The position numbers were made by a program, and so were the translations under genes. Positions 2,639 to 64,000 of a stretch of 64,000 bases of DNA are shown piece after piece. The stretch covers positions 1 to 64,000 of the IMG/VR virus record IMGVR_UViG_3300028115_001312. One strand, written 5' to 3'. The notes below the pieces were generated by a model. The model was not told where the DNA came from and made no database searches. It saw nothing but the letters and a program-made list of their open reading frames with translations. Positions within the stretch are counted from its first letter, which is position 1. Every line of letters begins with the position of its first letter. Origin of the DNA: an uncultured virus (IMG/VR IMGVR_UViG_3300028115_001312) (Duplodnaviria > Heunggongvirae > Uroviricota > Caudoviricetes).

Positions 2639-3428
2639 TCTCTCTACTCCTATATACCATTCGTTCTACAGTATCATCTCTATCGACTACTGGTTCTAAC
2701 TTTGTATTTAACTTATATGCAGTACAAACCCAGTTTATAACTCCGTGTTTTGGCCCAAATATATCATCTGTATTATTTTTTTGATTGTTTTTATTATATG
2801 TGCTTACAGGAAACCAATACATACTGTAATTGCAACTTTTTAAAAAGTCATAAGTTTCAGCATATGTTGTTTCGTCTTGCATTTCTATTAGCATGTCTGG
2901 TTTATGTGTATGTAAAATATTACGCATTCCTACTAACACTTTTAATTCTTGACCTTCTACATCAATTTTAACCAGATCAACTTTGGGTAATCCTAGTATA
3001 TCAAGTGGTGCAGATTTTATACCTGTGCCTTGTACTACTTTTGTTTTTCCGTAATCGAATTCTGTATCAACTTCTACTAAAGTATCACCTATTGCCATTT
3101 TAGTGGCAGTAACATTTTTTCTTAATGCACACATGCCTGCTACATTTTTTGATAACAAATCAAAATTAGCATCGTCAGGTTCAAATGCTAGTACTCGTTC
3201 TACATTGTAACTAAGTGGGATTGTATGTGTACCTATATTTGCACCTATATCAACGAACCATGTATTTTTTTTAGATAGGCTTTTAAGTAATTCTATTTCT
3301 GCTTGACAGTACTCGCCGTATAAATCTAAACTACGTCCTATTGTAGGATCGTCTATATAGATTAACATTTTACCACTTATTGTGTCAGTCAGTTTTGATT
3401 GTAGATTTATCTTTTTCGTTTGTTTCAT
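2607..3428 (-). CDS. FkbM-family SAM-dependent methyltransferase
   Basis: DIGANIGTH, AFEP, KIDVEGQE motifs. Confidence 0.88.
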   Translation of the reverse strand: MKQTKKINLQSKLTDTISGKMLIYIDDPTIGRSLDLYGEYCQAEIELLKSLSKKNTWFVDIGANIGTHTIPLSYNVERVLAFEPDDANFDLLSKNVAGMCALRKNVTATKMAIGDTLVEVDTEFDYGKTKVVQGTGIKSAPLDILGLPKVDLVKIDVEGQELKVLVGMRNILHTHKPDMLIEMQDETTYAETYDFLKSCNYSMYWFPVSTYNKNNQKNNTDDIFGPKHGVINWVCTAYKLNTKLEPVVDRDDTVERMVYRSRENVGNDRKDGR

Positions 3429-10526: not shown

Positions 10527-10895
10527 TTATTTATGTTCTTTCCAGACAGATTCAAACTTTTCTGAAGTACGAGGTAAACGTTCACAGTTTCCCCAAAGTC
10601 TTGCGGTATAATTATCAACCATTCTATCTACGTCTTTTTGGCTCCAACTATCAGGTATAAGTTGTCCTTTTACTGCAAAGTATAGTTCATTTGCATCTTT
10701 CCATTTTTGTGCAAAATCTTTTTCCCAATAAGCACGACCACCGTCCCATAGTGTTTTTAACCCAAATCCACATTTTAGTTGATAAATTTGTGATCCATCT
10801 GCATCATATTCCCATAGTCTATCATCTGGGGATAAGCCTACGTTTGTATATTTCTTTTGGAATATTTCCCACTTCATTACTGTTTTGTCCTCCAA
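10527..10895 (-). CDS. Hypothetical protein
   Basis: 122 aa ORF overlapping the upstream gene. Confidence 0.65.
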   Translation of the reverse strand: MEDKTVMKWEIFQKKYTNVGLSPDDRLWEYDADGSQIYQLKCGFGLKTLWDGGRAYWEKDFAQKWKDANELYFAVKGQLIPDSWSQKDVDRMVDNYTARLWGNCERLPRTSEKFESVWKEHK

Positions 10896-11560
10896 ACGAA
10901 GTACAGTCGATTTTTATGACTGTCTGTACGTAGATCCAATATGTCTACACCTAGTTGATTAGCACAATTTACTACAAAGTTGGCGTCCCAGGGATAAAAA
11001 CTAATCCAGTTTGATTCTGTTTTATCATGTGGCAGTCCTGGATTTGCTCTAAAGAATAGTACTGCACCTGGATTGCACAAACTCACTGCATGTTCTAGCT
11101 CAGCAAATATTTTATCTGTACTACCAAAATTTATACTTCCTAGTGCTAGTATTGCATCAAAACGTTCTTCTGGATAGTAATCTAATAGTTTGATTTGTAA
11201 ATCAGCACGATCATTATATGGATCAATCCCTATAATATTGTCTATCTTGCCTTTGAACTCATGGTATCCACATCCAATATCTAGAACATGTCTTGGTTTC
11301 AGTTTGTTTATTTCATCTATTAGTGCTGGACCACTGTATTTGTATTTTGACATTTCTCCTTGCCAAACATTGGCAAAATAATGTCCCAACACTTTATCAT
11401 CAATTCTATCTACTAGTTGTCCAATGTTTTCGTACTCAACATCTTCTACAGTTACATTAAATGTGGCCTGTATTGCTTGACGCATGGTATTTGGATTTCG
11501 TAGAAGTTGAGGTGATACGTGTATCATCTGTTCTAGTTTGTTAAGGATTTTATGATTCAT
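10877..11560 (-). CDS. Class I SAM-dependent methyltransferase
   Basis: VLDIGCG, IGIDP, FDAILA, NPGAVL motifs. Confidence 0.82.
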   Translation of the reverse strand: MNHKILNKLEQMIHVSPQLLRNPNTMRQAIQATFNVTVEDVEYENIGQLVDRIDDKVLGHYFANVWQGEMSKYKYSGPALIDEINKLKPRHVLDIGCGYHEFKGKIDNIIGIDPYNDRADLQIKLLDYYPEERFDAILALGSINFGSTDKIFAELEHAVSLCNPGAVLFFRANPGLPHDKTESNWISFYPWDANFVVNCANQLGVDILDLRTDSHKNRLYFVWRTKQ

Positions 11561-12090
11561 GGTTTACCTTTATATGTAGTAATGAAAATATCACTGTGTT
11601 TATGATGTTGTTTCCATTGTAACTTATGTTTCTGAGCAAAGTCAAGTATAAGTTGATTTTGTTCACATATTCTTTCCCACATAGTATCTATATTTTCATA
11701 CCATTCATAGTTAGGATATGTAATTGTAAAACCTCCGGCTTGTAACCACCAATCCATACTAGGTTGGTCTGCTCTATATATTAGTTGTATCCAAGCATCT
11801 GGATATTGATATTGTATTTCTGAAAAATAATATGGCCACTCATGACTCATTAGTAATTTAGTACCTGTACCTGAAAAAGGTGCATATAGGTTGCTTGCAA
11901 ATAAACTACAATCAAACTCCATGCCTGTGCCAAAATAAGCATCTCGATGTCCTGAGAATTTATTGTGTGTATAAACTCTATGTGGCGCTCTGTCTGTTGT
12001 ATCGTAAGCTGGGTCTTGTTTGATCTCCTGTGCAATACCACTCCAACGACTGCCTGGCACACCTGTAAAAAATATTAATTCTGGAAGCAT
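11557..12090 (-). CDS. P-loop/sulfotransferase-like protein
   Basis: FFTGVPGSRWS resembles a P-loop/PAPS-binding start; K/S-H and IYR elements follow. Confidence 0.45.
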   Translation of the reverse strand: MLPELIFFTGVPGSRWSGIAQEIKQDPAYDTTDRAPHRVYTHNKFSGHRDAYFGTGMEFDCSLFASNLYAPFSGTGTKLLMSHEWPYYFSEIQYQYPDAWIQLIYRADQPSMDWWLQAGGFTITYPNYEWYENIDTMWERICEQNQLILDFAQKHKLQWKQHHKHSDIFITTYKGKP

Positions 12091-17948: not shown

Positions 17949-18332
17949 TTATACCTCCAGTTTTCCTACACTAACTTTACCTTGATACTCTTGTGTTTGG
18001 TGACCAGCACTTGCTTTATAGATGCTTTGTGGTTCTTCGTCTTGTATACCTAACACATCATTTGGATCCACTGTTCTAACAGTTTCACCATTTAGTTCAA
18101 ACCCACGACTCCAACGTCCATGAGCAACTAATACGTATTGTCCTACACTAACATCTTGTTGTTCAGGTCCAATTGCAATTACTTTACCCCAACGAGGATG
18201 AATACCGCCTGACTTCCCGTCATCACTTAATATAATGATTCCGCCTTCAGTACGTTGTTCACCAAATTCCATGTTGTTTACAAGTATTCCATCTCTAAGA
18301 GGCTTAAATGTACCTGTAGTTTTTGTTATCAT
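17949..18332 (-). CDS. groES: Co-chaperonin GroES
   Basis: KPLRDGILV, TEGGII, GKVIAIGP, VSVG, DVLG. Confidence 0.85.
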   Translation of the reverse strand: MITKTTGTFKPLRDGILVNNMEFGEQRTEGGIIILSDDGKSGGIHPRWGKVIAIGPEQQDVSVGQYVLVAHGRWSRGFELNGETVRTVDPNDVLGIQDEEPQSIYKASAGHQTQEYQGKVSVGKLEV

Positions 18333-19157: not shown

Positions 19158-19673
19158 TTATCTTAAAAATTCGTCAACATCTAAATCATAATAAATGCTA
19201 TCTATTTTATGAACACCTATTAGATAAAGCACGTAACTTGCTACACTTGATCCTCTGCCTACACCCCAGACAACGTCATTATCTCTCATTGTGTCCACTA
19301 GATATACCAAAAAGCATAATAATTTAAACATATCTCTTTGTTGATAAAGTAATAGCTCTTTGCCTACACGTTGTAGCTCTACGTCAGTTTTACACAAATC
19401 CAATAGATATTTTGCAATATCTAAATTTTTGTATTTGTCAGGCATGTTCCAATCGTCTTGATTTTGTTTATGGAACCGTTGTACATCTATATCTAACTCG
19501 CCCAATTGTTTAAGCATAGTATTATAGTGTAGTTTATTACAGGCGTTATTAAACTTAGATACGTCTTGTAAACATAGATTACTAATATCTAGTTGAGGAT
19601 TTGCATATAGCATCTCAACTGCTTGATCTTCATCTAATATTTGTCTTGAATAGTTATCAAGCATTATTGTCAT
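19158..19673 (-). CDS. Stand-alone fragment of DNA polymerase III alpha (DnaE)
   Basis: RV..EL...Y LVD..R...WGVGRGSSVASYVLYLIGVHKID; only 171 aa. Confidence 0.75.
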   Translation of the reverse strand: MTIMLDNYSRQILDEDQAVEMLYANPQLDISNLCLQDVSKFNNACNKLHYNTMLKQLGELDIDVQRFHKQNQDDWNMPDKYKNLDIAKYLLDLCKTDVELQRVGKELLLYQQRDMFKLLCFLVYLVDTMRDNDVVWGVGRGSSVASYVLYLIGVHKIDSIYYDLDVDEFLR

Positions 19674-20717: not shown

Positions 20718-21401
20718 CTATTCTCTATTTCCTAGTAGTGCTAATAACATTTGGAATAAGTTGATAAAATTAAGATATAAACTTAATGCAAACTGTACTC
20801 CGTATCTTTCATCGCCACCACATTCGTTATAAATTTGTTTAGCTCTTTGTGTGTCCCAGGCAGTCAAACCTGTAAATATAAGTACACCAATAATACTAAT
20901 TGCAAAATGTAATCCACTGCTTGCTAAGAAGATATTTACAATACTAGCAATTATTATTCCAATTAGTCCTATTATTAAAAAACTACCCATTGAAGTTAGA
21001 TCTTTTTTAGTACTATATCCATATATACTTGCACCAGCAAAAGTTGCACTTGTAATGAAGAAAACTTGAACTAAACTATAGGCAGTATAAACTGCAAATA
21101 ATGCACTTAATCCTATACCCATTACGGCAGTAAATGCATAGTAAAAGTTCTTTGTAGTAGATAGTTCCCAATTACGTCCTGCAAAACTATACCAAAAAAT
21201 CATACCCAATGGTGCTAACATTACTACCCATGCTAGTGGACCACTCATTAATGAGTATACTAATCCTGTTGCATAAACAAAATAAGCAACAACACCACTT
21301 ACTGCTAATCCCATAGCAGTGTGGTTAAACATATTCAACATAAATTTACGTAAACCTTCATCATACTGATAACTAGTTGTCGCATATGCTGATCTATTCA
21401 T
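20718..21401 (-). CDS. Bax inhibitor-1/YccA family membrane protein
   Basis: DEGLR.FM, TKKDLTS.G, FTGLTAWDTQ, ALSLYLNFINLF. Confidence 0.9.
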   Translation of the reverse strand: MNRSAYATTSYQYDEGLRKFMLNMFNHTAMGLAVSGVVAYFVYATGLVYSLMSGPLAWVVMLAPLGMIFWYSFAGRNWELSTTKNFYYAFTAVMGIGLSALFAVYTAYSLVQVFFITSATFAGASIYGYSTKKDLTSMGSFLIIGLIGIIIASIVNIFLASSGLHFAISIIGVLIFTGLTAWDTQRAKQIYNECGGDERYGVQFALSLYLNFINLFQMLLALLGNRE

Positions 21402-25200: not shown

Positions 25201-26061
25201 TTACGGTGCTGACGATTTATATGGGTGATCAACTGGTAAGTTGGCGGTTAAGCCCCATTTGTGAGCAAGATAACCTTCTGCTTTTTCAAAATCTGTTATG
25301 TCTGTGCCGCCTGTACCCGGAATGGCAGCAACACAAAAAAATTCTGCTACTCTGCCATCCAGTCTCTCGTTAGCCCTGTTACGCATGATTCTCACGTCTT
25401 GGTCAGTGTTGATTGAGTTGTCGTAGTCGTTCACAGGAGTAAATGCGTTTGAACCATCTACCCTGGCGGCGATTTGGTTACCAGTTTTGTTAAATATAGT
25501 GCCTACCAGATGAAATGCGTCAAGGCTGACTGCTGAGTCAAAGGCTTCGAGGTTACCTATGGTTGATGAAATTCTGTTTGAACTTAATCCATCTAGGTCT
25601 AACTCACCGTTGAATGCACTGGCGTTACCAGAACTGACAGCATAGCCTCTTTTGCTGGTTGCTGCTACTGTGTTGTTTGTAAAACTGTAGAAACTGTCCT
25701 GCGTGTCATTTACGGTGTCCGCCAGAAACACGCCTATGGCCCAGTGATTACCACTGGATGCTACTGCCTGTTCGTCTGATGTAGTAAAGTCCTCACCAGA
25801 TCCGCTAAAGTCCCATACGTTAAGACTGTTTAATCCACTGGTAACTCTGGTTGGTGTACCGTTGACTGTGATTGAGAAATTACTTGCCTTGTCGGTGACT
25901 GCTGTAACTGTGCTACCACTCAATGTATAACTGCCTGTGTCTGAGGCATCTATCCAAAATGCAGTAGTTATATCTGTTGAAGGATCCCACGCCGCACCAC
26001 TGTAAGCAGTTGATCTACGTCCTGCAAAAAAACTACCGTTTACTGTTCCAATTATTGGCAT
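25201..26061 (-). CDS. LamG/concanavalin-like beta-sandwich protein, candidate receptor-binding module
   Basis: FWIDASD...DK, G.VAEF, EGYLAHKWGL...LP..HPY pattern. Confidence 0.6.
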   Translation of the reverse strand: MPIIGTVNGSFFAGRRSTAYSGAAWDPSTDITTAFWIDASDTGSYTLSGSTVTAVTDKASNFSITVNGTPTRVTSGLNSLNVWDFSGSGEDFTTSDEQAVASSGNHWAIGVFLADTVNDTQDSFYSFTNNTVAATSKRGYAVSSGNASAFNGELDLDGLSSNRISSTIGNLEAFDSAVSLDAFHLVGTIFNKTGNQIAARVDGSNAFTPVNDYDNSINTDQDVRIMRNRANERLDGRVAEFFCVAAIPGTGGTDITDFEKAEGYLAHKWGLTANLPVDHPYKSSAP

Positions 26062-28976
26062 TATGTAAAGTCTACCATCTGTCCAAGAACAACATAAGAA
26101 CCGCCATCATTTAGTATTGTAAATGAAAAACTATCAATACCGTTAGCATTTCCTGTAGGTGCTGAACCACCTTGCCAGTTTAGTGTTTGTGCCGCACCAC
26201 CTATTTGAACAGCAGTAATTTCGTAAGGTGTGCCACCTTGATTAATTATTACTGTTAGGTTTGTGGCATATTCTTGAGTAAGTGTTAAATTTGTAAAGTT
26301 TGCAGTTATATCACCACTTGCACCTGTAAGATAATGTATATGTCCAGTACTACAATCTAAAGCAGTAACACCTGTTGCACCTGTTGTTGTTTCAAACTTT
26401 TCTTCAATGCCTTCATTAATCTGTATTGGTGCTCTGAAAACAATTTGTCCGGTACCATTAGCATCAAGTGTAAGGTCATCATTACTTCTATCTGAACTTA
26501 TATTGTTGTCTACAATCTGTATACCATCTGTGTTTAAACTGCCACTAACAGTAATACTTGTTACACCTGAGATATCATCTGCTAAACTAAATGATAATGC
26601 ACTACCGGCGGCATTGACATCAATTTCATTTGTTGTACCTAGTGCCTGTAGTGTATCTCCTACACCAATGCTTCCTGAGCCTGTGTTACCAGCAGTTGCT
26701 ATTGCACCTTGTGAATTAGTATCAACATAATCTTTTACTGCTGCCGATGTAGGTAAAGTTGTATCATTGTCGTTACTTCCAATACCTTCACTTTCAATAA
26801 CTATTGCCGCCGCTTTAAAATCTGCAACATCAATATTACTAATACTATTTCCTGTACCTTCAACATCAAATGTTTTATTAGTAAATGTCATCGAATCAGA
26901 AGCAACATTTCCTGTTTCCGTATCAACATATGCTTTAATACTTTGTTGTGTTGCAAGTTGTGTATCACTATCACTTGCAAAATTATCTTCATCAAGGATT
27001 GCAGTACCACTTACACCAGTATTAATAACTGGACTTGTTAATGTTTTGTTTGTTAATGTTTGTGTACCAGAATCTGACACTAAAGTTGCGTCACCATTTC
27101 CAATTGTAGTACCACCTGGTAATGTTAATGTATTTGTAGCACCTGCTGAATGAGGTTGAGAAGCAATTACTTGGCCATGTGAATTAACATGACAATTTAA
27201 TTGTAATTGACCAACTACTGATGAACCATCACCTCTAACTTCAACAATATTGGTTGCTGGTTCTAAAATAATGTTACCTGAAGCACTTGTTGTAGTGCCA
27301 CCGACAATAGGTGATGTCAAGGTTTTGTTTGTTAGTGTTTGTGTATCTGTTAATGTTGCTACAGTTGAATCAATAGAAATGTCATCTGCGTTTGCATCAA
27401 TACCTGTACCGCCAACCACATTTAATGTTACTGCACCAGATACTCCACCACCAGTTAAACCATCACCTGCAGTAACCGAAGTTATATCTCCACTAGCAGT
27501 TATTTGTGAATCCACATATGCTTTGATACTCTGCTGAGTAGCAAGATGAACAGCACTGTCACTTGCCATATTATCTTCATCTAGTACGCCTGTGCCTGTT
27601 ACTGTTCCGTTTATATTGATACTTCCTGTACCACTTGATGAAAGTATTAGATCATCATTAGTTCTATTTGCACTAATATTATTGTCTACAAGTGTTAAGC
27701 CGTCTGTAGTTATAGTATCAAAGTCAGTGGAACCTGTAAATGTTCCAACTAAATTTGTTGCAGTTACAGTTCCAGTTATATTAATATCACCTGTGCCTGT
27801 GATATCGTTACCATTTAAATCTAAATTACCGCCTAGTTGTGGGGTTGTGTCTTCAACAATACTTGTTATTGCTCCACCACCGCCTGCATTGGCTTCTAAT
27901 CTTATAGTACCTGATGCATCATCATACGTTAAAACATAGTTGTCCTGACTAGATCCTACTACTTGATCTGCATCAAAAACTAAATTTCCTAATGCTACGT
28001 TTCCTGTACCGTTTGGTATTAAATTAATATTATCATTACTACGAGAACCTTGTATGTTATTATCTACAATAGTTAATCCATCTGTAGTAATGGTATCAAA
28101 GTCACTTGACCCAGAAACAGTTAACCCACCATTTAATGTAGTATCACCAGCAACTATAAAAGTTCCTGTTCCTTGTGGATTTATAGTTATGTCACTATTA
28201 GTTGATATACTTTGAATAGTATTACTAATTGTTTGTAAACCACCAATCTCTGAACTTGTGCCTGTGTATGTAGTTGCAAAAACATCTCTATAATATTTTG
28301 TAGTACTTCCTATATCAAATGTGTTATGTGTATTGGGTATTAAGTTACTGTTTAAATCTGCATTAATGCTAATACTGTCAGTGGTAGCATCACCTATTGT
28401 AATGTTTCCACCAATAGTAACATCACCACTTGCATCTAAGTCTGTTACATATGCAGTTGCAAATCTTAGTGAACTAGATCCTAAATTATAAGTTGCAGTT
28501 GCATCTGGAACAATACTGCTGTCAATGCGTCCTGTAATTGTAACTGTATCTGCACTACTATCACCTAAGTCTACTGTACCATTTGCGACAAACGCACCTG
28601 ATACTGTAATACTACTAGGAGTAAATGCACCTGCAGTCATTGAACCATCAACGATTATATCGCCATCTATGTTTGCATTGCCATCTACTTGTAGGGTAGC
28701 ACCTCTAATTTGTCCTGTTGCTACTGTGTCTCCACGAAATAAACTATCTCCTTCAACTTCTACTTTACCAGTGCCATTAGGGTCTAAAATAATATTTGTA
28801 TTGGTATTGTCAGTTGTTATCTTATTAGAAGTTAATTTAAGTTCACTTAGACTATCGCCGCCTATTTCGTTGTAAACTTCTGTAAAGTTTTCATTTACCT
28901 TTACAAAAGCAGCACGTAGACTATCACCTGTGCCGTCGTCACTAGCAGTACCTACATTAATAGTTTGCTTGCTCAT
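26061..28976 (-). CDS. Long repetitive tail fibre/baseplate-associated protein
   Basis: N-terminal DGTGDSLRAAF.K.N.NF (T4 gp9/gp10-like anchor); internal repeats DNNI...ND....NGTG, ATQQSIKAYVD, TQTLTNKTLTSP. Confidence 0.75.
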   Translation of the reverse strand: MSKQTINVGTASDDGTGDSLRAAFVKVNENFTEVYNEIGGDSLSELKLTSNKITTDNTNTNIILDPNGTGKVEVEGDSLFRGDTVATGQIRGATLQVDGNANIDGDIIVDGSMTAGAFTPSSITVSGAFVANGTVDLGDSSADTVTITGRIDSSIVPDATATYNLGSSSLRFATAYVTDLDASGDVTIGGNITIGDATTDSISINADLNSNLIPNTHNTFDIGSTTKYYRDVFATTYTGTSSEIGGLQTISNTIQSISTNSDITINPQGTGTFIVAGDTTLNGGLTVSGSSDFDTITTDGLTIVDNNIQGSRSNDNINLIPNGTGNVALGNLVFDADQVVGSSQDNYVLTYDDASGTIRLEANAGGGGAITSIVEDTTPQLGGNLDLNGNDITGTGDINITGTVTATNLVGTFTGSTDFDTITTDGLTLVDNNISANRTNDDLILSSSGTGSININGTVTGTGVLDEDNMASDSAVHLATQQSIKAYVDSQITASGDITSVTAGDGLTGGGVSGAVTLNVVGGTGIDANADDISIDSTVATLTDTQTLTNKTLTSPIVGGTTTSASGNIILEPATNIVEVRGDGSSVVGQLQLNCHVNSHGQVIASQPHSAGATNTLTLPGGTTIGNGDATLVSDSGTQTLTNKTLTSPVINTGVSGTAILDEDNFASDSDTQLATQQSIKAYVDTETGNVASDSMTFTNKTFDVEGTGNSISNIDVADFKAAAIVIESEGIGSNDNDTTLPTSAAVKDYVDTNSQGAIATAGNTGSGSIGVGDTLQALGTTNEIDVNAAGSALSFSLADDISGVTSITVSGSLNTDGIQIVDNNISSDRSNDDLTLDANGTGQIVFRAPIQINEGIEEKFETTTGATGVTALDCSTGHIHYLTGASGDITANFTNLTLTQEYATNLTVIINQGGTPYEITAVQIGGAAQTLNWQGGSAPTGNANGIDSFSFTILNDGGSYVVLGQMVDFT

Positions 28977-28986
28977 GTACTACTCC

Positions 28987-29571
28987 TTAACTAACTGCGT
29001 ATGCTGGTACTACGTAATTTACACCGTTGATTTTGATTTGAAAATATGTTGATGGTGTAGCCGGTAAGGCATCAGCACCACCTGCAGCTCCTACTGTTGT
29101 TTGAGCAGTTGTAATATAATTTATTTTACCTGTACCATTTGGATCAATATCAATATCATCGTTAGTTGTTTGTGTTGTAATTCTGTTATCTTCTAGTAAT
29201 AATCTTGTATTAACACTTATATTTCCTGTAGTTGCTACATTTGTTCCATCGAAAGTAAATGCACCACTTGTTTGTATATCGCCATCAGCATCAACGTATG
29301 CAACTCCATTGTCGGTATGGTCTGTTAATCTAATTTCTGCACCTGTTGCTATTACTAGTCTACCTGTACCATTTGGATCAATAATAACATTACCATTTGT
29401 ATTATCACTAGCAATAGTGTTGCCAGTTATTGTAATATTGTTGCCACTTGCAGCAGTACTGTATAGATAAAGTTCATCAAAATTATCGTTGATTTTATCA
29501 AAGGCAGTACGTAACGGATCACCTGTACCGTCGTTTGCACTACTACCTAAGTTTACGGTTTGTTTTGCCAT
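28987..29571 (-). CDS. Short tail/baseplate-associated protein, paralogous N-terminus to the downstream gene
   Basis: ANDGTGDPLRTAFDKINDNF; DPNGTG repeats. Confidence 0.72.
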   Translation of the reverse strand: MAKQTVNLGSSANDGTGDPLRTAFDKINDNFDELYLYSTAASGNNITITGNTIASDNTNGNVIIDPNGTGRLVIATGAEIRLTDHTDNGVAYVDADGDIQTSGAFTFDGTNVATTGNISVNTRLLLEDNRITTQTTNDDIDIDPNGTGKINYITTAQTTVGAAGGADALPATPSTYFQIKINGVNYVVPAYAVS

Positions 29572-48830: not shown

Positions 48831-49970
48831 TTATCCTAGTATTGTACAAATTTTTCCTGCTAAGTTAATAAAGAAATCTTCTTTATGACCTTTTGTAGTT
48901 TCAGCGGCAGTGCCTATTCTTATACCACTTGTTTCTACAAAACTACGTGGATCATTTGGTACACCATTTTTATTAACAGTAATACCATTTTCTTCCAGTA
49001 AGTCTGCAGCTTGTCTACCACTATGCTTACTTTTGCTTAAATCCATTAATATAATATGACTATCTGTGCCACCTGTTTGTACAGGAAAACCACGTGCTTC
49101 AAATACCTCGCACATTACTTTTGCATTTTTGATCACTTGGTGTGCATACTGTTCAAAACTAGGAAGTAATGCTTCACTGTAACATTGTGCTTTTGCAGCA
49201 ATTATGTTCATAAGTGGTCCACCTTGTGTGCCTGGAAATATTGCACTATTAATACGTTTGCACCATTTAGGATCATCCCATAAGATCATGCCACCTCTAG
49301 GTCCACGAAGTGTTTTATGTGTAGTGCTTGTCACTACATCTGCATAACCAAATGGACTATCATATACTTGACCAGCGACTAGTCCACTATAGTGTGCCAT
49401 ATCAACTAATAATATTGCACCTACACTGTCAGCAATTTGTCTAAATGCACTCCAATCTATCTGTCTTGGATATGCACTTGCTCCTGCAACAATTAACTTA
49501 GGCATATTAAGTTTTGCAATACCTTCTATTTTATCGTAGTCAAGTAAACCATTATCATCAACACCATAAGTGACTGCATTGTAAAACTTACCACTTAGAG
49601 TAGGAGGTGCACCGTGTGATAAGTGTCCGCCACTTGCTAGATCCATACCCATAAGTACATCACCAGGTTTCATAAATGCTTGATAAACTGCAGTGTTTGC
49701 ATTTACACCTGAATGTGGTTGCACGTTTGCATACTCACAACCATAAAGTTCGCAAACTAAATCTATTGCAAGTTGCTCAACCTCATCCATATACTCGCAA
49801 CCATTATAGTAACGTTTACGTGGATAACCTTCTGCATACTTGTTAGTAAAAATACTACCACACAAGTCCATTACTGCTTGACTTGCATAGTTCTCACTAG
49901 CAATTAATTCTATAGTTGTATCTTGTCTTAGTTGTTCTTTGTCTAGTATTAACTTTATGTCTTCATACAT
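48831..49970 (-). CDS. glyA: Serine hydroxymethyltransferase
   Basis: LIASENY, NKYAEGYP, GGHLSHG, TTHKTLRGPRGG, FPGTQGGP. Confidence 0.96.
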   Translation of the reverse strand: MYEDIKLILDKEQLRQDTTIELIASENYASQAVMDLCGSIFTNKYAEGYPRKRYYNGCEYMDEVEQLAIDLVCELYGCEYANVQPHSGVNANTAVYQAFMKPGDVLMGMDLASGGHLSHGAPPTLSGKFYNAVTYGVDDNGLLDYDKIEGIAKLNMPKLIVAGASAYPRQIDWSAFRQIADSVGAILLVDMAHYSGLVAGQVYDSPFGYADVVTSTTHKTLRGPRGGMILWDDPKWCKRINSAIFPGTQGGPLMNIIAAKAQCYSEALLPSFEQYAHQVIKNAKVMCEVFEARGFPVQTGGTDSHIILMDLSKSKHSGRQAADLLEENGITVNKNGVPNDPRSFVETSGIRIGTAAETTKGHKEDFFINLAGKICTILG

Positions 49971-54145: not shown

Positions 54146-55180
54146 TTACTTCTTAAGCATGTCTGCAGTAAGCACTGGTAATTCTTTCATTGCTTTAGCA
54201 TACTTTGCTCTTTCTTCTTTTGGCATTGGAATCATACCAGCATCAGATAATATGCCTTCTTCGTTCCAATTCTTTTTCCAACTAACCATATACTCTTCGA
54301 TACCAGGTACAACACCTATGTGCTGATGCTTGACATAAAAGAACAAGGCTCTTGAAACTGCATAGTCACCATCTGCAATTGCTTCAAATGTTGGCTCACC
54401 ACCATCTATGATTGCACCATTGAGAGTATCACTGTTTTGATCTAGGTAACTGAAGCCAAAAATACCATAAGCTGTTGGATCTTCAATTAACTTTTGTACA
54501 ATCAAGTTGTCCTGTTCACCTGCTTCAATGAATGCACCGTCAGTTCTCATGGCTCTACACTTTTTGCCTTTTTTATCACCTCTTGCTTTAGATGCTGCTT
54601 TTGCAATTTTGTCTTTGCCACAATAACCTTTTTGATTTACCATTTCTGCATAACTTGCTCTTGTACCTGAAGTTGTTGGTGGCCCATAAACTCTAATGTC
54701 CAAATTAGGAAGTGCAGGATTTATATCACTCCACTTTTTGTATGGATTGTCTATCCATGTTCCGTCTGCTTGTGGTATTTTTGCAGTTAGTGCTCGTGCT
54801 AAATCTGCTTTACTAATGTTTAATTGAATACCTTTTTTACTGCTTGCAACAACAATACCATCATAACCTACTTTAATTTCAGTTACCTTTACACCGTTCT
54901 TTTCACAGTATTCTAATTCTTTTGTTTTCATTCTTGAACTTGCATTTCCAATGTCTATGAACTGTGTTCCTACACCATCACATACACCTTTCTTACCAAC
55001 ACTACTACCACCTGATTCTACAACTGGTGTTGGTATACTTGGATTCTTTCCTACTTGTTCAGCGATTATTCTCGCAAATGGAAGTACAGTACTTGAGCCT
55101 GCAATACTTAACTGATCTCTCGCAACTGCCACATTAGAAGCCATTGCTAATGCTACTAATGCAATTAACATTTTATACAT
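54146..55180 (-). CDS. pstS: Phosphate-binding protein PstS
   Basis: Signal peptide, GSSTVLP, GGSSVG, ASSR, GYDGI, SGTR, GFSY, Y..SR.LFFY. Confidence 0.93.
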   Translation of the reverse strand: MYKMLIALVALAMASNVAVARDQLSIAGSSTVLPFARIIAEQVGKNPSIPTPVVESGGSSVGKKGVCDGVGTQFIDIGNASSRMKTKELEYCEKNGVKVTEIKVGYDGIVVASSKKGIQLNISKADLARALTAKIPQADGTWIDNPYKKWSDINPALPNLDIRVYGPPTTSGTRASYAEMVNQKGYCGKDKIAKAASKARGDKKGKKCRAMRTDGAFIEAGEQDNLIVQKLIEDPTAYGIFGFSYLDQNSDTLNGAIIDGGEPTFEAIADGDYAVSRALFFYVKHQHIGVVPGIEEYMVSWKKNWNEEGILSDAGMIPMPKEERAKYAKAMKELPVLTADMLKK

Positions 55181-56287: not shown

Positions 56288-56962
56288 TTATATACCTATC
56301 TTTCCACTACATGTATAATAATAAAAATCATCATCTGCACAACAAAAGAAGTCTCCTACGAGATAGAAAAACTTACTTTGTGTTAGGTAATGGTCAAATA
56401 AGTCTATTAATGGATTCCTATATTCTAGTGTAAACTGTACTGCTTTATCATCTTCAGTTTTAAACCAATGATTGTATTTTATTTCAGGACCGTATCTTGT
56501 AGTAGTGCTTCTTAGGTATTCTACTTTAAGTTTTTTACCATAAATGGTCATGTTAAAAGGAGTACTAGTATCACAAAGATCTTGTATTTCTTTTTTTACT
56601 ATATCCTGTATATAAAATTCTGGTAATTTTGTAAGCATGCCTACTTCAGTAAAATGCACTAAATGTTTGCTTTCTCTTTCTAGTGCCTGTTGTAAATGTT
56701 TCCTAAAAGTTGAGAAATGATATTCTTTTTTAAAAGTTCCTAAGAATAGGTTTTGCTTATAAAATTTACGAATATCTTCTGCACGTTCTAAATAATCACC
56801 TTGTGCAATTATTTCTTTTGTACGTGTAGCATTATCTATGTCTTTTAAGTCAACATGGTAATCTGTGCCTTCATTTCTTATTATGGCTATTGCTATAGGA
56901 TCATGATTAAATTCTATAAAACCGTCTTGTCCTGGTTGTAAAAACTCTAGTTGTTCCTGCAT
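56288..56962 (-). CDS. Hypothetical protein
   Basis: 224 aa; coupled to guaC. Confidence 0.65.
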   Translation of the reverse strand: MQEQLEFLQPGQDGFIEFNHDPIAIAIIRNEGTDYHVDLKDIDNATRTKEIIAQGDYLERAEDIRKFYKQNLFLGTFKKEYHFSTFRKHLQQALERESKHLVHFTEVGMLTKLPEFYIQDIVKKEIQDLCDTSTPFNMTIYGKKLKVEYLRSTTTRYGPEIKYNHWFKTEDDKAVQFTLEYRNPLIDLFDHYLTQSKFFYLVGDFFCCADDDFYYYTCSGKIGI

Positions 56963-58083
56963 TACTCATATACTCTATTGTGTGTATCCTGACAACGAAT
57001 AAATGTTGTACATTTAGGTAAGTGTTTTAATTTTTCTGCACCCACATATGTACATGCACTACGTAAACCACCTAGCATGTCCTGCACTGTGTTTGTAATA
57101 GCACCTTTGTATGGCACCAATACTTCTCTACCTTCGCTTGCACGGTAGTCTTTAAGCCCTCCAAAGTGCTTTGTATTGGCAGCATCACTGCTCATGCCAT
57201 AAAACTGTACAAAATGTTTTTCTTCATAAACTGGCTCAAGCCATCCTTTATCATCTTTAAGGACTTCGTTAGTTTCATAAACTTTAGTAATTACTTCACC
57301 GCCACCTTCATCGTGTCCAGCAAGCATACCACCTAGCATAACAAAATCTGCACCACCAGCGAATGCTTTTGCTACATCACCAGGGCAAGTACAACCTCCA
57401 TCAGCAATAATGTGTCCACCTAATCCATGAGCTGCATCAGCACATTCCATTACTGCACTTAGCTGTGGATAACCTACTCCTGTTTGTATACGAGTTGTAC
57501 ACACACTACCAGGTCCTATACCAACTTTTACTACATCTGCACCACGAAGTATCAACTCCTGTGTTTGATCTGCGGTTACTACGTTTCCTGCAATAATGAC
57601 TAAACCAGGATATTCTTCTCTGATACTTGCAACATAGTTTAGGAAACGTTCACTATATCCATTTGCAACATCAATACATACATACTTAATACCTTTACTA
57701 CCTGCATATACTGCCCTAAACTTACTAGCATCATCTTCTGTGATGCCCATGCTATATGCTACATGTTCTCTTGCAATTGTACTTGTGTTAAAGAAATCAA
57801 CTAATTCTTTTATACTGTATGTTTTTACAAGGCAAGTAAACAAACCAAGTTTGCCCAGTGCTTCTGCCATATCAAATGTACCCACACCATCCATGTTAGC
57901 AGCCATAATTGGAACTGCATTAAAATCATAATCTCTTTGTGTGTTTATAGGGTAACTTGGATTGTAATTTCTAAAACTGTGTCTACGTGTAAGTTGTACT
58001 TCTTTACGTGAACCTAGTGTGCTACGTTTAGGACGCAACAGAACACTATTGTAATCTAACTTGACTTCATTCTCGATATTCAT
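56962..58083 (-). CDS. guaC: GMP reductase
   Basis: [47 protein letters not shown]. Confidence 0.95.
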
Positions 58084-58098: not shown

Positions 58099-58404
58099 CT
58101 AGTTTGATTCTAATTTAATCTCTAATGGGTAACCTTGATTTCTTGCACTAAGCAATACTTCTACACCTTTTTGTTCTGCTACTTCAAAAGGAAGTAGGGC
58201 AACAACACCAGAACCTTTTTCATTTATTTCCATTGCTTTTTTGTCTGCATCTGTAGGTTTGTATGAAAATTTATCTACTAAACTTCCTGTAACAAAATCA
58301 AATGTAGTTACATTGTCATTTAAATAAATGATTTTGTAATCTTTAGGTGGTTCAATATCGTCTAATATTGGTCTGAACTTTTGTTTGATTTCTGTTCCAC
58401 TCAT
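58099..58404 (-). CDS. clpS: ClpS adaptor
   Basis: PP..YKIIYLNDNVTTFDFV, G.GVV, E.AEQK, AR..GYPL. Confidence 0.88.
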   Translation of the reverse strand: MSGTEIKQKFRPILDDIEPPKDYKIIYLNDNVTTFDFVTGSLVDKFSYKPTDADKKAMEINEKGSGVVALLPFEVAEQKGVEVLLSARNQGYPLEIKLESN

Positions 58405-58462: not shown

Positions 58463-58900
58463 TTACTTGTTAATTGTAATTTTACGAGGCTTCTTCTCTT
58501 CTGGAACTATTCTTTCAAGTTCAATGAAAAGCATACCATTTTCAAGTTTAGCATCTTGAACAACGATATCATCATTTAGTGTAAACTTACGAGTAAACTT
58601 TCTACGTGAAATACCTCTGTGTAATATTTCACCAGCAAAGTTATTTTCATCAAGTTCTACTGGATTATGGCTAATTGTCATAACATTTTCTGCTACTTCA
58701 ATGTCCAAGTCTTCCATTTTTACACCTGCTAGAGCCATTTCAATTTGAAATTTATCTCCGTCTCTTACAATGTTGTAAGGTGGATAGCCAGTACTCTGAG
58801 TCTGATGTTCAACATAGTTAAACATATTATCAAAGATTCTGTCGAATCCGACGGCATATGGTGTAAGTTTATTGATATCGAGTGAGGTTAATCTTGTCAT
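58463..58900 (-). CDS. Small heat-shock protein (Hsp20/IbpA-like)
   Basis: VGFDR.F, YPPYNI, EMALAG, LHRGIS.R.F, ENGML, PEEKKPR.I.I. Confidence 0.93.
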   Translation of the reverse strand: MTRLTSLDINKLTPYAVGFDRIFDNMFNYVEHQTQSTGYPPYNIVRDGDKFQIEMALAGVKMEDLDIEVAENVMTISHNPVELDENNFAGEILHRGISRRKFTRKFTLNDDIVVQDAKLENGMLFIELERIVPEEKKPRKITINK

Positions 58901-59349: not shown

Positions 59350-59702
59350 TTAGTCATCCATTTTATTAGCGGATCTATAGGATCCTTAACTTCATTTAAA
59401 TTAAATCGTTTGTACGATTGTTTATTATTATAGTAGTAAACTTGTGATTTGTCAATAAAGAAACCTAAAAAAGTTTCATTATATGCACAGTTTAATATAC
59501 TTATGTCTGCTTGATGGTAAGCAGTAGAAATCCATTCTAAATCTTCTTGTTTGTTAGTAGTATATAAAGTAACTTCTATGGGTAATCTTCTAATGTTATC
59601 TACTATATTTTCTATATAATCATCACATCCTATGCAAAGAATACTTGGTGCTTTTGCATAGTATATATCAGGAGGAGTTACTACTGTAACATTATGGTGC
59701 AT
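59295..59702 (-). CDS. Hypothetical protein
   Basis: VVTPPD N-terminus; operon-packed. Confidence 0.65.
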   Translation of the reverse strand: MHHNVTVVTPPDIYYAKAPSILCIGCDDYIENIVDNIRRLPIEVTLYTTNKQEDLEWISTAYHQADISILNCAYNETFLGFFIDKSQVYYYNNKQSYKRFNLNEVKDPIDPLIKWMTKWQDHKDQLEKNKDYMSK

Positions 59703-60561
59703 TTAATTTTATCCATTGTTTCTTTGTAATTACATTTGCTTTGTGATCTAAAATACTATCTTTATCTTTTTTTGTAGGACACATAGTGCAAATTTTATGT
59801 GGTTTACCAAAATTTTTTATAAACATAACAATCTCATGCAAAGGACTTTCAATTGATATACCCTGGTAATCTGTATATGGTTTCCATTCTTGATTAATAG
59901 GTTGTTTCCAGTCATTAAGAACTTTATTTAATAAGGCAATACTACTGCATTTGTATATCTTACCTTCATAAAGTAAAGGGCAGGTCTGTTGAATACACAT
60001 ATCAAATGCATCCTTAGGATTATTATTGTGTGGCCACATATTTCCAAAAGTACCTTTATAGGTTTTAAAAAATTGTGTTGGACTGTTAATTTGGAATCTA
60101 GTATTATTAGGGCCTATCCAGCGATTTATACCATATTCAGTAACAGGTTTCCATTCATACTTTTTAAAAATATATTCTATTATCGACTTAGCATATGGTT
60201 TATCTTCATGTATTGTAAACTTAAACACGGTATTTCCAACATCAATACACCAATCTAAAACTTCAGGACATTTATGAAAGTTAACTCCGTTTGTTGTAAA
60301 CCTTATTTGACTATTAGGTAGTAACTGTCTTACACCATATATCCATTTCTCACAATCTGGGTTAAGAGTTGGTTCTCCTCCCATTATACCAAAATCAGAA
60401 ATATCTAACCTGTCTATCCATTTTTCTATCCAAGACTTACCGTTTTGCCAACTTATACTGCCTTTCATATTATAATCACTATAATTTGAACACCCTGCAC
60501 AACTTAAATTGCAAGCATATGTAATCATAGTTTCAACAAAAGGAAGTATAGGCTTACTCAT
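59692..60561 (-). CDS. Radical SAM protein
   Basis: CNLSCAGC, GGEP, TNG, SPASM/twitch-like C...GKIYKC...CTMC. Confidence 0.88.
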   Translation of the reverse strand: MSKPILPFVETMITYACNLSCAGCSNYSDYNMKGSISWQNGKSWIEKWIDRLDISDFGIMGGEPTLNPDCEKWIYGVRQLLPNSQIRFTTNGVNFHKCPEVLDWCIDVGNTVFKFTIHEDKPYAKSIIEYIFKKYEWKPVTEYGINRWIGPNNTRFQINSPTQFFKTYKGTFGNMWPHNNNPKDAFDMCIQQTCPLLYEGKIYKCSSIALLNKVLNDWKQPINQEWKPYTDYQGISIESPLHEIVMFIKNFGKPHKICTMCPTKKDKDSILDHKANVITKKQWIKLNAP

Positions 60562-60869
60562 AACTTAAATTTAACTTCTTCTTGTTCTTGCTCTGTAAGA
60601 TCATCTATTTCAATATGACCCTGTTTTACCAACCAAGTAAGATGTGTTATGTAATCTTCATTTAAGTAAGTATCGGTTGTTTCTTTATCTAATTGCATCC
60701 AGTTTGAACCTGTCCAGCGAAATAATTTATTAGGTAGTGCATCTACTCTTACAAACAAATCACCTTTATCAGGATACTTGGGAAAAGCAGTACCAAAGTC
60801 TGCTTGAGCCGCCTTTTCTAAATCCAGATCCGCTACAACGGCTAAATTCGGGGTAGGGATCGTTATGCT
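60558..60869 (-). CDS. -1 frame C-terminal extension of the upstream gene (likely reached by programmed frameshift)
   Basis: Frame open from the A7 run to 60558 with no ATG/GTG/TTG before 60758; encodes ..ADFGTAFPKYPDKGDLFVRVD.LPNKLFRW.G..W. Confidence 0.7.
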   Translation of the reverse strand, partial: SITIPTPNLAVVADLDLEKAAQADFGTAFPKYPDKGDLFVRVDALPNKLFRWTGSNWMQLDKETTDTYLNEDYITHLTWLVKQGHIEIDDLTEQEQEEVKFKL

Positions 60870-62626
60870 TTTTTTGGCTCTTCAGGGGTTTCGGTGTTAG
60901 CTTCTGCTTCTAAACCTTGTGCAAATTCGTCTTTTTCAACTAATTGATACTTCTCTGCCATTTTAATAACAACTGCATCACGTCTTTCTATCTCTGCTTC
61001 CTGTTCAGCTATCTTCTTTAATAGTTCTTCTTCACGAGTTTTAAGACCTTCTGCACCTTGTGCTATTTCATCCAGTGTCTTTTTGTAGTTGTCACGTTCT
61101 GCTTCTGTTGCAACTACTTTATCAACTAGTGCATCACTTTCTGCTTTTGCTTCTGCGAGTTGTGCTTCTAAACCAGCAATTTTTTCTACTAGTTCATCAC
61201 GTTCTTTTTGTAGTTCTGCAAACTTCGCAGGATCTACATTAGCAAGATTACCATCTAATAGTTTTTCTATTTCTGCTAAGACTTCATTATGTTTTTTAAG
61301 TTCCATTTCTAGTTCCTCTACTCTTGGATCAGTAACTCTTACGATTTGTTCTTTTACTTTTGGTTTATTTTTTTGGCGGTCTTCTCTCCACCATCCTATT
61401 GTCATAGTACCTGCTAGTACTAAACAAACTGCAAGTGGATCAAATACTGCAACAATAATTATAATAACCCAACGTACTGCATCTTCTAATAAGTTACGAT
61501 CTGCTTCACCATATATAAGTTCTGCAATATATTTTACAGGACCAACTTCAGCTTCAAACTGTCTATATTCTTTTTCAAATACAAACTTTTCTTCTCTTAA
61601 TTTGTCTAACTCTGGTTGTACACTTTCTATATTTTTTTCTAACTGTACAATCTTTTCATCTACACTATCATTAGTAGTACCTGCTTCTGTAGTATATTTT
61701 GCAATATTTGAATTTGCACTATCAATAGTGCCTTTTATACTGTCACGTATTTTTTGTATACGAACTTCTACTTGGTTAATTTGTTCAGCAAGTTTTTTGT
61801 TAATCTCTGTAATTTGTCTTTGTACTCTACTTGCGACACCAATCTCATTTTGTTTTGCTTTTGCAATATCAGCATTAAGTTTATCACGTTCAGGCTTTTG
61901 TTCTTTACGTAATTGATTACCTTTTGCAACATTATCTACATCAGCAGTAAACACACCACCCTTAGTTGTGCCTTGTTTTAAATATGCTTCAACATCTTTG
62001 TCCAGTACTGCTAAACGTTTTTCTGCTTGTGCTATGTCTGCCTTTGTACGATTCTGTGCATCACTTAATCGTTTGTTTTGTTGTGCAATTTCTTTATCTG
62101 CTTGTGCTTGTAGGCCAGGTATCTTCGCATTTTCTGCATCTATTTGTGGTTGTATTCTATTGTTTGCTTCTTTAATACGATCACGTTCACGTTTTATTAA
62201 TACATCTAATCTAGTGCTTGTTTCACCCTGGTTAAGTCTTTTAATATCTTCTGTCCAGCGATTGACTTTGGCTTGTATACGTGCCATCTTTTTGTCAATT
62301 ACTTCAACTTGTGCAATTTGTTCTGTACCCATTGCACTTTGTTCAATATGGGACTTAGATAGGAAACCAAATACACCCATGCTTGTGATAAACATAAGAA
62401 CAACTACTGCAATTACTAGATAACTTTTTATTACCATAGGTGCACGATGCCAGTTTTGATGTAACCATACTGTTGCTAGTAGTTTACCTACTTCTAATAC
62501 ACTACCCATTAGGACAATTGGTAAGAAAGCCGCTGCAAATATTGCAGTAAGTCCAATAATACTATAATACGCAGCAATTATACTGATTGATATAGCAACA
62601 AATAATGTGAGGATACCTAAAAACAT
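60863..62626 (-). CDS. Membrane protein with long coiled coils
   Basis: Three N-terminal TM helices (LEVGKL, ITSMGVFGFLSK), coiled coil, EVGPVKYIA, TM with FDPLA, second coiled coil. Confidence 0.8.
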   Translation of the reverse strand: MFLGILTLFVAISISIIAAYYSIIGLTAIFAAAFLPIVLMGSVLEVGKLLATVWLHQNWHRAPMVIKSYLVIAVVVLMFITSMGVFGFLSKSHIEQSAMGTEQIAQVEVIDKKMARIQAKVNRWTEDIKRLNQGETSTRLDVLIKRERDRIKEANNRIQPQIDAENAKIPGLQAQADKEIAQQNKRLSDAQNRTKADIAQAEKRLAVLDKDVEAYLKQGTTKGGVFTADVDNVAKGNQLRKEQKPERDKLNADIAKAKQNEIGVASRVQRQITEINKKLAEQINQVEVRIQKIRDSIKGTIDSANSNIAKYTTEAGTTNDSVDEKIVQLEKNIESVQPELDKLREEKFVFEKEYRQFEAEVGPVKYIAELIYGEADRNLLEDAVRWVIIIIVAVFDPLAVCLVLAGTMTIGWWREDRQKNKPKVKEQIVRVTDPRVEELEMELKKHNEVLAEIEKLLDGNLANVDPAKFAELQKERDELVEKIAGLEAQLAEAKAESDALVDKVVATEAERDNYKKTLDEIAQGAEGLKTREEELLKKIAEQEAEIERRDAVVIKMAEKYQLVEKDEFAQGLEAEANTETPEEPKKA

Positions 62627-62651: not shown

Positions 62652-63506
62652 CTAATTGTCAACTAACAAAATATCAAATGTACAGGTATATCTACCATTA
62701 TTACTAAATGTTATCATCCTTGCATCTAAGTCAGATTTTTCAGTCAGTGCTTGTGGTATAGGGTACTCAAGTTGATAAGGTCCACCTACACCATTTACTT
62801 CTGCAATGTGCTTGGTTTGAAAACTACCTGTACCACTTGGACGAACCATAAGTTTAAAGCTACCTGTCGCCGTACCTTGTGCAGTTACATCTAATCTCAT
62901 TAGATAACCTGTTTTTCCTGCAGGAATAGTATATATACTCATTAAGGTTTGACCTATATTCTCTAGTATTTTTGCTACAGTTGTACCGCTTGACTTAATT
63001 AAAATACGTTTTGTGTTAGGTTCAAAACTTCCACCGTCAGTAAATTTTGCTCTAAAAACTCTTTTGAAATTATTTGAAGTTGTGCCACTAGATCCTGATA
63101 TAGTTACTGTTTCTGTTTGTAAAGCATAGTCGCCATCTAATCCTTGTATTTCAACAGTATCGCCATTATGTGCAGTACTAGTGGATGCTTCATTATTTGG
63201 TTCTACAACTGTAACTGTGAGGACACCATTGCTATCTATAGTACTCCAAGGATATATAGTATCATCTTCATCCCATATTGTACCTTCTGTATTTTGGCTC
63301 ATTGAAGGGACTGCACCAAACTTGTGAATTTCACCAAACCCTGAAGGCAGTTGGATATTTGTTATTACACTACTACCCGTGGTCCTTAATACAGGTTCAC
63401 CACCTAAATTATACTCCATTGCTTTATGTACATTAAGTAGATTAGTTTCTTGTGGATGCACATAACTTGTAGAGTTTTGTCTACTAGTATCTGAATAGTC
63501 AGCCAT
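62652..63506 (-). CDS. Beta-rich hypothetical (possible virion) protein
   Basis: IHKFG, IQGLD, F.RVFRA, YTIPAGKTGYL, EKSDL. Confidence 0.7.
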   Translation of the reverse strand: MADYSDTSRQNSTSYVHPQETNLLNVHKAMEYNLGGEPVLRTTGSSVITNIQLPSGFGEIHKFGAVPSMSQNTEGTIWDEDDTIYPWSTIDSNGVLTVTVVEPNNEASTSTAHNGDTVEIQGLDGDYALQTETVTISGSSGTTSNNFKRVFRAKFTDGGSFEPNTKRILIKSSGTTVAKILENIGQTLMSIYTIPAGKTGYLMRLDVTAQGTATGSFKLMVRPSGTGSFQTKHIAEVNGVGGPYQLEYPIPQALTEKSDLDARMITFSNNGRYTCTFDILLVDN

Positions 63507-63509
63507 TTA

Positions 63510-63971
63510 TTATGTCCAAGGACGACTTGCAGTTAGGTTGCCACTATCGCCTGTGTTATCAGTTACAGTATCGTTCACATAACGTGTAGGTAACAGTGTT
63601 CTGTCATGTGTATTCCCACTACGATAATATGGTTTTGTTGTATCGCCACCAGCAGTACGTTTTAATGCAGCAATGTCAAGCATCATAAGTTGACTGCGTT
63701 CTCTTGTAGTCTGGTTTCTGTCTGTTGCTACAGTTATAATATCACCTGCTATTATACCAGCATTTACTAATGTAGTACTTGCACTATCTGTACTATCTAC
63801 AACTGTTCCATTTTTATGAATACTAACTGGACCATAGTAATAACTTTGTAATCCTTCATCAGCAATAATAGCAGTACGAAGTTGCGCCATTGTTTGCCCA
63901 TTGTCAATTGTAAGGTCGTTGTGTAATCCTGTTAGGCCTTTATATTTTATATTAATGTTTGCCACGTTCAT
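63510..63971 (-). CDS. Protein with N-terminal ubiquitin-like beta-grasp domain (likely GTG start 63965)
   Basis: IKYKGLTG..LTID..TMAQLRTAI..DEGL...TL...GI..GD.I aligns by eye to ubiquitin. Confidence 0.6.
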   Translation of the reverse strand: MNVANINIKYKGLTGLHNDLTIDNGQTMAQLRTAIIADEGLQSYYYGPVSIHKNGTVVDSTDSASTTLVNAGIIAGDIITVATDRNQTTRERSQLMMLDIAALKRTAGGDTTKPYYRSGNTHDRTLLPTRYVNDTVTDNTGDSGNLTASRPWT

Positions 63972-64000
63972 GCTCCAGTTGTGTTATGTAATGATATAAA

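Follow-up and report, generated by a model that had tools for sequence, protein, structure and literature searches.

What does a tailed phage do with a ubiquitin-like domain (Ubl) that cannot be conjugated? The question is raised by an open reading frame (ORF) at positions 63510..63971 (minus strand) of the 64,000-nucleotide stretch analyzed here (the window), which comprises bases 1-64000 of a 75,429-bp viral contig of IMG/VR (IMGVR_UViG_3300028115_001312; CheckV completeness, 22%). Host-encoded Ubl conjugation is now central to anti-phage defense, and the one ubiquitin-fold domain of phages that we know of is the ThiS/MoaD-like domain in tail assembly protein I (TAPI) of the lambda type. A sequence-only reading of the window had described the product of this ORF as a Ubl with a tail and had offered two roles for it, a decoy of bacterial defense systems or a structural adaptor. 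Here, we report that the Ubl is of the ubiquitin type, that it is joined to a 66-aa module which defines the family, and that the gene stands in a conserved block with exchangeable partners. To the reading that the product carries a built-in Ubl cap and acts as a structural adaptor in a virion appendage, we give about even chances.

Translated from its ATG, the ORF encodes 153 aa, and the protein strings quoted in the sequence-only reading are present exactly in the minus-strand translation of 63510..63971. A GTG at 63965, giving 151 aa, is the likelier start, because a GGAG precedes it by 7 nt, against a spacing of only 1 nt for the ATG, and because the majority of homologues are proteins of 151 aa whose sequence opens with MAN-. 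Tandem stop codons (TAA TAA) close the ORF, and the ATG of the next gene follows 3 nt further on. Of 191 candidates from a word-indexed search, 156 were relatives at E ≤ 0.01, almost all of them 148 to 153 aa long, unnamed, and from aquatic metagenomes; with an E value of at most 1e-3, an exhaustive HMMER search returned 122 cluster representatives, 44 of them at E ≤ 1e-10. The gene is thus real and conserved. The tail module that it encodes is present in a single copy on the 75-kb contig, and a 203-kb relative has two copies, one standalone and one fused to a LamG domain. The family is described nowhere in the literature searched, and the jumbo-phage survey of Iyer et al. (2021; PMC7824862), searched for ubiquitin terms, does not mention it. 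The protein had no match in PADLOC or NCBIfam and no usable match in the ESM Atlas, and its relatives in UniProt and BFVD are uncharacterized. Two uncultured-phage proteins in BFVD match the whole target model (TM score, 0.74 to 0.75); the remaining viral matches there are ubiquitins of eukaryotic viruses and are confined to the Ubl.

The Ubl occupies residues 4-85 (63717..63962, minus strand). The AlphaFold2 (AF2) model (pLDDT, 91.9; pTM, 0.84) has strands at residues 5-11, 17-23, 46-53, 56-59, and 78-83 and a helix at 28-39, the beta-grasp fold on which the sequence-only reading depended. Foldseek gave at least 296 PDB matches at E ≤ 1e-3, headed by the C-terminal domain of ISG15, SUMO2, ubiquitin, and NEDD8 (TM score, 0.7 to 0.8 on the matched chains), and VIA-align against 48,161 chains gave the ISG15 C-terminal domain at Z 12.2 (root mean square deviation, 1.7 Å over 77 residues) and ubiquitin at Z 10.4 to 10.9. 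Both sets of alignments are confined to residues 1-89 of the model.

The kinship with ubiquitin extends to sequence, at the level of the family. A 36-member family profile matched single ubiquitin chains at E 2e-6 to 5e-6 (~30 bits) and reproduced, over positions 4-77, the ubiquitin alignment that had been made by eye. That this domain is closer to ubiquitin than to ThiS/MoaD was borne out: the 60 profile matches listed comprise only ubiquitin, its natural fusions, and engineered forms of it, with no ThiS or MoaD among them. Neither the target nor 35 longer relatives had a ThiS/MoaD match in Pfam, and there is no terminal Gly-Gly. Four of these 35 relatives pass the PF00240 gathering threshold of 25.4 bits (26.0 to 53.7 bits). 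In one relative (P0164), a near-canonical ubiquitin matches single ubiquitin chains at E ~1e-13, with 41 of 76 aligned positions identical (HMMER match line); it also matches the UBL region of the Rad23 model, and the UBLs of Dsk2 and Rad23 are among the fold matches. The single target sequence gave no PF00240 match in Pfam at E ≤ 1, where OTU1_UBXL alone was returned (14.1 bits against a cutoff of 22.7), and phmmer of that sequence against PDB sequences returned no ubiquitin and three unrelated matches (E ≥ 0.22). The ubiquitin resemblance is beyond chance for the family and not for the single sequence.

The end that conjugation uses is lacking. The sequence-only reading had noted the missing di-Gly end and a tail of ~70 aa, and the model agrees: strand 78-83 runs on into a helix (90-109), a hairpin (129-138), and an end that reads R-P-W-T. 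Across 36 aligned sequences, no conserved Gly marks the junction between Ubl and tail, and the G-G at residues 108-109 lies inside the tail and is unconserved in the family. Even in P0164, whose ubiquitin is near-canonical, the second Gly is gone and the chain passes into the helix. The Ubl cannot be conjugated and is not a transferable tag. Genes for E1 and JAB, suggested earlier as a check, were sought with ThiF and Prok-JAB models, which had no match on the 75-kb contig or on the contigs of four relatives (203, 73, 51, and 51 kb), all of them fragments (15 to 57% complete). The corresponding search for E2 (UQ_con) is uninformative, because its positive control gave no match.

Conservation is concentrated behind the Ubl, in the adaptor or tail module (residues 88-153; 63513..63710, minus strand), which consists of the helix, a loop, the hairpin, and the R-P-(W) end. 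In the 36-sequence alignment, Q94, R150, and P151 are invariant and L98, A101, R105, L127, P128, L146, and W152 are near-invariant; residues 94-152 hold all three invariant and seven of the eight near-invariant positions. Mean pairwise identity is 46% in the tail and 32% in the Ubl. The tail module, not the Ubl, defines the family. No match to the module was found in Pfam or PHROGs.

The architectures of the relatives form a series around this module. Some proteins have no Ubl and carry the 66-aa module at the extreme N terminus, at least nine closed reading frames consist of the module alone, and in some relatives repeats with tail-fiber PHROG matches are inserted between Ubl and module. Among 65 module proteins encoded beside genes with the N-terminal peptide described below, 32 are Ubl plus module, 16 add a C-terminal domain to these, 12 are module only (3 of them at contig edges), and 5 are module plus C-terminal domain. 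About 4 in 10 representatives (49 of 122) exceed 250 aa, the chain continuing straight past R-P-W. The boundary is sharp, in that standalone proteins stop 1 to 4 residues past R-P-W and fused ones continue there. In the 35 longer relatives scanned, the C-terminal parts are Laminin_G_3 (17), PA14/GLEYA (5), and DUF285 repeats (1), and PHROG matches of the fused parts are to virion structural protein, baseplate wedge subunit, and tail fiber protein. The module, with or without LamG, PA14, or DUF285, has the form of a conserved anchor with exchangeable distal domains.

The gene order around the module is also conserved. In close relatives, a gene termed c2 (~100 aa, overlapping the target start) is followed by the target, a variable gene, a gene of ~590 aa with transmembrane segments and coiled coils, and then the genes for HSP20, ClpS, and GMP reductase. 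The variable gene encodes a 284-aa phrog_8198 protein, as here, or an unrelated 466-aa phrog_1645 protein, or is absent. In the window, the 284-aa gene (62652..63506, minus strand) starts 3 nt past the target stop codons, and its product has a jelly-roll-type body behind an N-terminal peptide (residues 1-41; 63384..63506, minus strand) that is invariant across the two body types. The same peptide heads the 466-aa body, which matches phrog_1645 ("virion structural protein") at E 3.5e-112. Within residues 11-41 lie 17 of the 19 invariant positions of the alignment of the two types (A2), phmmer E values between the types are 1.6e-18 to 3.4e-18, and the 44 peptide carriers in a large protein collection fall into two length classes.

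When this peptide alone was used as the query, 99 relatives were found in IMG/VR and 80 loci were fetched (L029-L108). The module gene lies directly upstream on the same strand in 64 of the 80, and in 46 of 57 groups after loci were merged at ≥95% nucleotide identity. It is preceded by a c2-like gene in 61 of the 64, the other three having <350 nt of upstream flank. Seven of the 80 loci have a different, beta-rich protein of ~97 aa in the slot between c2 and the N-peptide gene, which may be an analogous adaptor (e.g., L039, L095, L096, L103, and L108, at about 2660..2980 in each). Neither slot protein is upstream in the remaining nine, in one of which the module is downstream.

Only the 3' end of c2 lies in the window (63952..64000, minus strand; contig 63952..64257; L002 1953..2258), where it overlaps the target start by ~20 nt. 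A c2-like gene stands ahead of the module gene in 13 of 25 loci that were found with the module, and c2 had no match in Pfam, PHROGs, PADLOC, or NCBIfam; its product has a strongly conserved, Gly-rich C-terminal motif. The fourth gene (60863..62626, minus strand) encodes 587 aa, with several N-terminal transmembrane segments and a central one and long coiled coils, and at least 24 of the 80 loci have a homologue of it downstream, a count limited by the flank fetched. The 587-aa protein had only weak coiled-coil matches (SMC, JetC, LmuB) and, in the ESM Atlas, only unnamed viral clusters below 0.9. A fusion of the target with its downstream gene was considered and rejected: the 401-aa fused forms are still followed by the variable gene, which shows that they did not fuse with the neighbor, and the extra part is LamG. 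A radical SAM gene lies three genes downstream of the target (59692..60561), and in the 203-kb relative a homologue (L028 11456..12304; E 6e-64) is the immediate upstream neighbor of the LamG-fused paralogue; no other fetched locus has one, and the link is too thin to be used.

The AF2 model of the 284-aa neighbor (pLDDT, 76.5) has an all-beta body, with residues 1-28 and 40-52 below 50. The top match of the body is a viral turret protein (Z 10.1, ~100 to 117 residues aligned), and others are viral capsid jelly-rolls, PBSX XepA, a phage cement protein, TNF/C1q-like domains, and fiber-tip domains. T4-like cyanophages have homologues of both bodies (50 records for the 284-aa body and 176 for the 466-aa body) without the peptide: the tblastn matches begin at residue ~10 to 55 for the 284-aa type and at residue 54 for the 466-aa type, and the cyanophage homologues of both bodies share a different N terminus of their own. 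They lie just after the neck and terminase genes gp15-gp16. Sullivan et al. (2010; PMC3037559) mention a virion protein in the gp16-gp17 hot spot, which we could not link to either body family. A complex prediction for the target family alignment with neighbor residues 1-60 scored 0.00; this is no verdict and was counted neither way.

These observations are brought together in a two-module protein, in which the Ubl (~4-85) is joined, with no cleavable di-Gly, to a 66-aa adaptor (~88-153) that may serve as a fixed joint or connector of a virion appendage (fiber or decoration). Distal parts would be attached by either of two routes. The covalent one would be that of the lectin domains (LamG, PA14, or DUF285) that relatives carry after R-P-W; in the noncovalent one, suggested for the window, the module would dock the jelly-roll protein encoded downstream by the invariant peptide at its N terminus. 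The Ubl would be an optional, permanently attached, and exposed N-terminal cap or a knob for protein-protein contacts, and the window protein would be a minimal form (cap plus connector) whose jelly-roll protein is supplied in trans. Of the two roles first offered for this gene, the structural adaptor is thus the one favored, with a shift of emphasis: the adaptor function most likely lies in the 66-aa tail, and the beta-grasp domain, to which it had been ascribed, is the optional cap. It is improbable, on present evidence, that large aquatic T4-like phages go further and display a eukaryotic-type ubiquitin on the virion exterior as a functional surface ligand on a previously undescribed connector that also bears lectins or docks exchangeable jelly-roll proteins. 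Such a domain, which in some members is about half identical to ubiquitin itself, might let the phage adhere to eukaryotic or particle surfaces, or might preoccupy or mimic the fiber site that is modified by Ubl-conjugating bacterial defenses.

The adaptor reading has parallels among known phage proteins. Modular fiber and receptor-binding proteins (e.g., those with the T4 gp9/gp10 N-terminal domain) likewise combine a short constant module with variable lectin or jelly-roll parts, and fiber cassettes likewise exchange bodies on an invariant N-terminal peptide. The present module differs from such anchors in standing mid-protein, between Ubl and lectin, and in that its place on the virion is only proposed. 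The Ubl has the fold of the integral UBLs and modifiers (ubiquitin, ISG15, SUMO, and NEDD8), the family profile being kin to ubiquitin itself, and like the UBLs of Rad23 and Dsk2 it is N-terminal and permanently attached. Unlike eukaryotic UBLs, it is encoded by a tailed phage, is followed by a phage-specific 66-aa module with lectin or jelly-roll partners, has no di-Gly, and in the target sequence falls below the Pfam ubiquitin threshold. The ubiquitins of eukaryotic viruses (baculovirus v-ubi, giant-virus ubiquitins, and bovine viral diarrhea virus inserts) are virus encoded too and are the next-best BFVD matches after the two phage relatives; those proteins act in cells with a ubiquitin system, whereas the target comes from a bacteriophage lineage with a T4-type DNA polymerase and baseplate genes.

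Several observations weigh against the inferred placement of the protein on the virion. The block is set among auxiliary genes (HSP20, ClpS, GMP reductase, and a nuclease), away from the baseplate cluster (window, 22 to 30 kb), and the LamG-fused paralogue of the 203-kb relative lies near the DNA polymerase. The link between module and peptide is asymmetric, since the N-peptide gene adjoins the module gene in only 9 of the 25 module-found loci, and no N-peptide was found in the 203-kb relative (57% of the genome examined). The jelly-roll matches of the neighbor are generic, given Z values of at most 10.1 over ~100 to 117 residues. On the cyanophage homologues of the bodies, the labels "virion structural" and "tail fiber" (others are hypothetical) are those given by depositors; neither body has a homologue in S-SM1, a phage with a published virion proteome, and the match in S-PM2 is an 83-residue domain inside p175, a virion structural protein of 1,095 aa. 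A single copy of the T4-type late-promoter word TATAAATA, fewer than chance would give, was found in 13.4 kb, and its position is unrelated to the block. Cultured phages lack the target: a tblastn search of 50,697 phage records with the protein gave no match, nor did one of cultured phages with a module-only relative. Megablast of 4 kb against cultured phages also gave no match, and tblastn with a fused relative matched in its LamG part only, in cyanophages and Rhizobium phages.

The strongest rival, which we rate as unlikely but credible, is an assembly factor that, in the manner of lambda gpI (TAPI), assists the jelly-roll protein in folding or attachment and has no place in the mature particle. 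It ranks first because the layout of TAPI is the same, with a Ubl at the N terminus, a small domain at the C terminus, and a host-specificity-type gene next in order; the TAPI description (PMC1779556) gives a ThiS/MoaD-like Ubl whose C-terminal Gly is conserved, together with a TAPI-C domain and a flanking JAB plus NlpC/P60 protein. The tight coupling of the target to its neighbors (a 3-nt gap downstream, a ~20-nt overlap upstream) would suit such a factor, as would the neighbor's N-terminal peptide, which is predicted to be disordered alone. The lectin-type domain that about 4 in 10 representatives carry at their own C terminus would be odd in a chaperone and is typical of a displayed protein. 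The resemblance to TAPI also breaks down in detail: the Ubl here is of the ubiquitin type and has no such Gly, Lambda_tail_I and ThiS gave no Pfam match at E ≤ 1, Prok-JAB and ThiF were not found on the target contig or the four relatives' contigs, and lectins occur in the relatives. An intracellular adaptor for host takeover, in which the Ubl would recruit partners to proteolysis or chaperone machines, we regard as very improbable. Eukaryotic integral UBL domains act as shuttles to such machines, and this phage encodes ClpS, HSP20, DnaJ, and Cpn10, with the ClpS and HSP20 genes 5 kb downstream on the same strand. We know of no UBL receptor on the bacterial Clp and Lon machines, however, and the lectin fusions point to an extracellular role. 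In cyanophages, moreover, the homologues of the neighbors are found alongside neck and terminase genes and have no Ubl.

The decoy proposed in the sequence-only reading, a nonconjugatable Ubl that soaks up or blocks the E1/E2 enzymes or the deubiquitinase of Bil or CBASS Cap2 systems, found no support, and we hold it to be very unlikely. A true ubiquitin-family fold with no ligatable end is what such a decoy would need, and the Ubls of Bil and CBASS Cap2 are likewise beta-grasp proteins in the contest of phage and bacterium. A preprint (bioRxiv 10.1101/2023.09.04.556158) reports that Bil conjugates its own Ubl to the central tail fiber of a phage, so a fiber-associated Ubl would be thematically close to that target. 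Those Ubls are host encoded, with a ligatable Gly end and with E1, E2, and JAB genes beside them, whereas the present one is phage encoded and C-terminally fused. It is also dispensable in a family that keeps the tail module and the gene order, and lectin fusions and virion-like neighbors are ill suited to a cytoplasmic inhibitor; PADLOC gave no hit, and no bacterial defense Ubl is among the solved fold matches listed. A processed Ubl, cut at or near the junction with the module or after R-P-W by a phage or host protease so that the Ubl or the lectin or body is freed, seems slightly more doubtful still. The sharp boundary past R-P-W would be consistent with a cut there, and the contig covers only 22% of the genome (CheckV), which leaves room for a protease gene. 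However, the Ubl ends without a Gly-Gly or other conserved residue, P0164 has lost its second Gly, and JAB and E1 were not found in the 75 kb here or the 203 kb of the relative. The tandem stop codons that end the target ORF also argue against read-through into the neighbor.

The contig (G+C content, 34%) has T4-type markers (gp9/10-like N-terminal domains, PhoH, MazG, PstS, HSP20, ClpS, and SHMT), and the 203-kb relative encodes a T4-type family-B DNA polymerase; the phage is therefore a large T4-like aquatic phage. The gp9/gp10-type N-terminal domains lie at 28987..29571 and 26061..28976 of the window. The sequencing runs that contain the stretch are labeled as salt-marsh and marine metagenomes. 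In six metatranscriptome runs, 51 to 88% of sampled words were present, and metatranscriptome contigs cover the block in four of four runs, one of them spanning the neighbor, the target, and the start of c2. This coverage does not demonstrate transcription, because it extends to genes of both strands and DNA may have been carried over.

Other genes of the contig were noted in passing. Genes in the window encode DnaJ (1178..1987), a Cpn10-like protein (17949..18332), ClpS (58099..58404), and HSP20 (58463..58900), and auxiliary genes encode a TctA-family transporter subunit (8998..10428), a Bax1-inhibitor-like membrane protein (20718..21401), serine hydroxymethyltransferase (48831..49970), a PstS-like phosphate-binding protein (54146..55180), and a GMP reductase/IMPDH-family protein (56962..58083). 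A 171-aa ORF (19158..19673) matches only the N-terminal part of DNA polymerase III alpha (phrog_11127; E 1.4e-48), although the relatives of the phage have a T4-type family-B polymerase. Elsewhere on the contig, a Gly/Pro/Cys-rich protein of 126 aa (L002 8704..9084) has a weak PAAR-motif match (E 1.5e-4, below the cutoff) and adjoins a 590-aa protein that belongs to no known family (L002 6932..8704; the pair at contig ~68931..71083); the two may be a tail-spike tip pair. Beyond them lie tandem paralogues of 390 and 391 aa (L002 9580..10752 and 10721..11896; phrog_25854, function unknown), nearly identical at both ends.

The family shows a ubiquitin-type domain, traceable to ubiquitin by sequence, hard-wired into a phage protein, and its constant part is a previously undescribed 66-aa connector in a widely conserved block of three to four genes with swappable distal proteins. 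Should the Ubl meet a host Ubl system, it would offer a lead to counter-defense, and if ubiquitin is displayed, no phage appendage with a Ubl built into it would have been known before. Should a virion appendage be what the block builds, the module and the 41-aa peptide would constitute a new docking system by which host-recognition genes of uncultured aquatic phages could be annotated, a defined pair that could be tested in vitro, and a natural case in which the ubiquitin fold serves as a structural or adhesive part and not as a signal.

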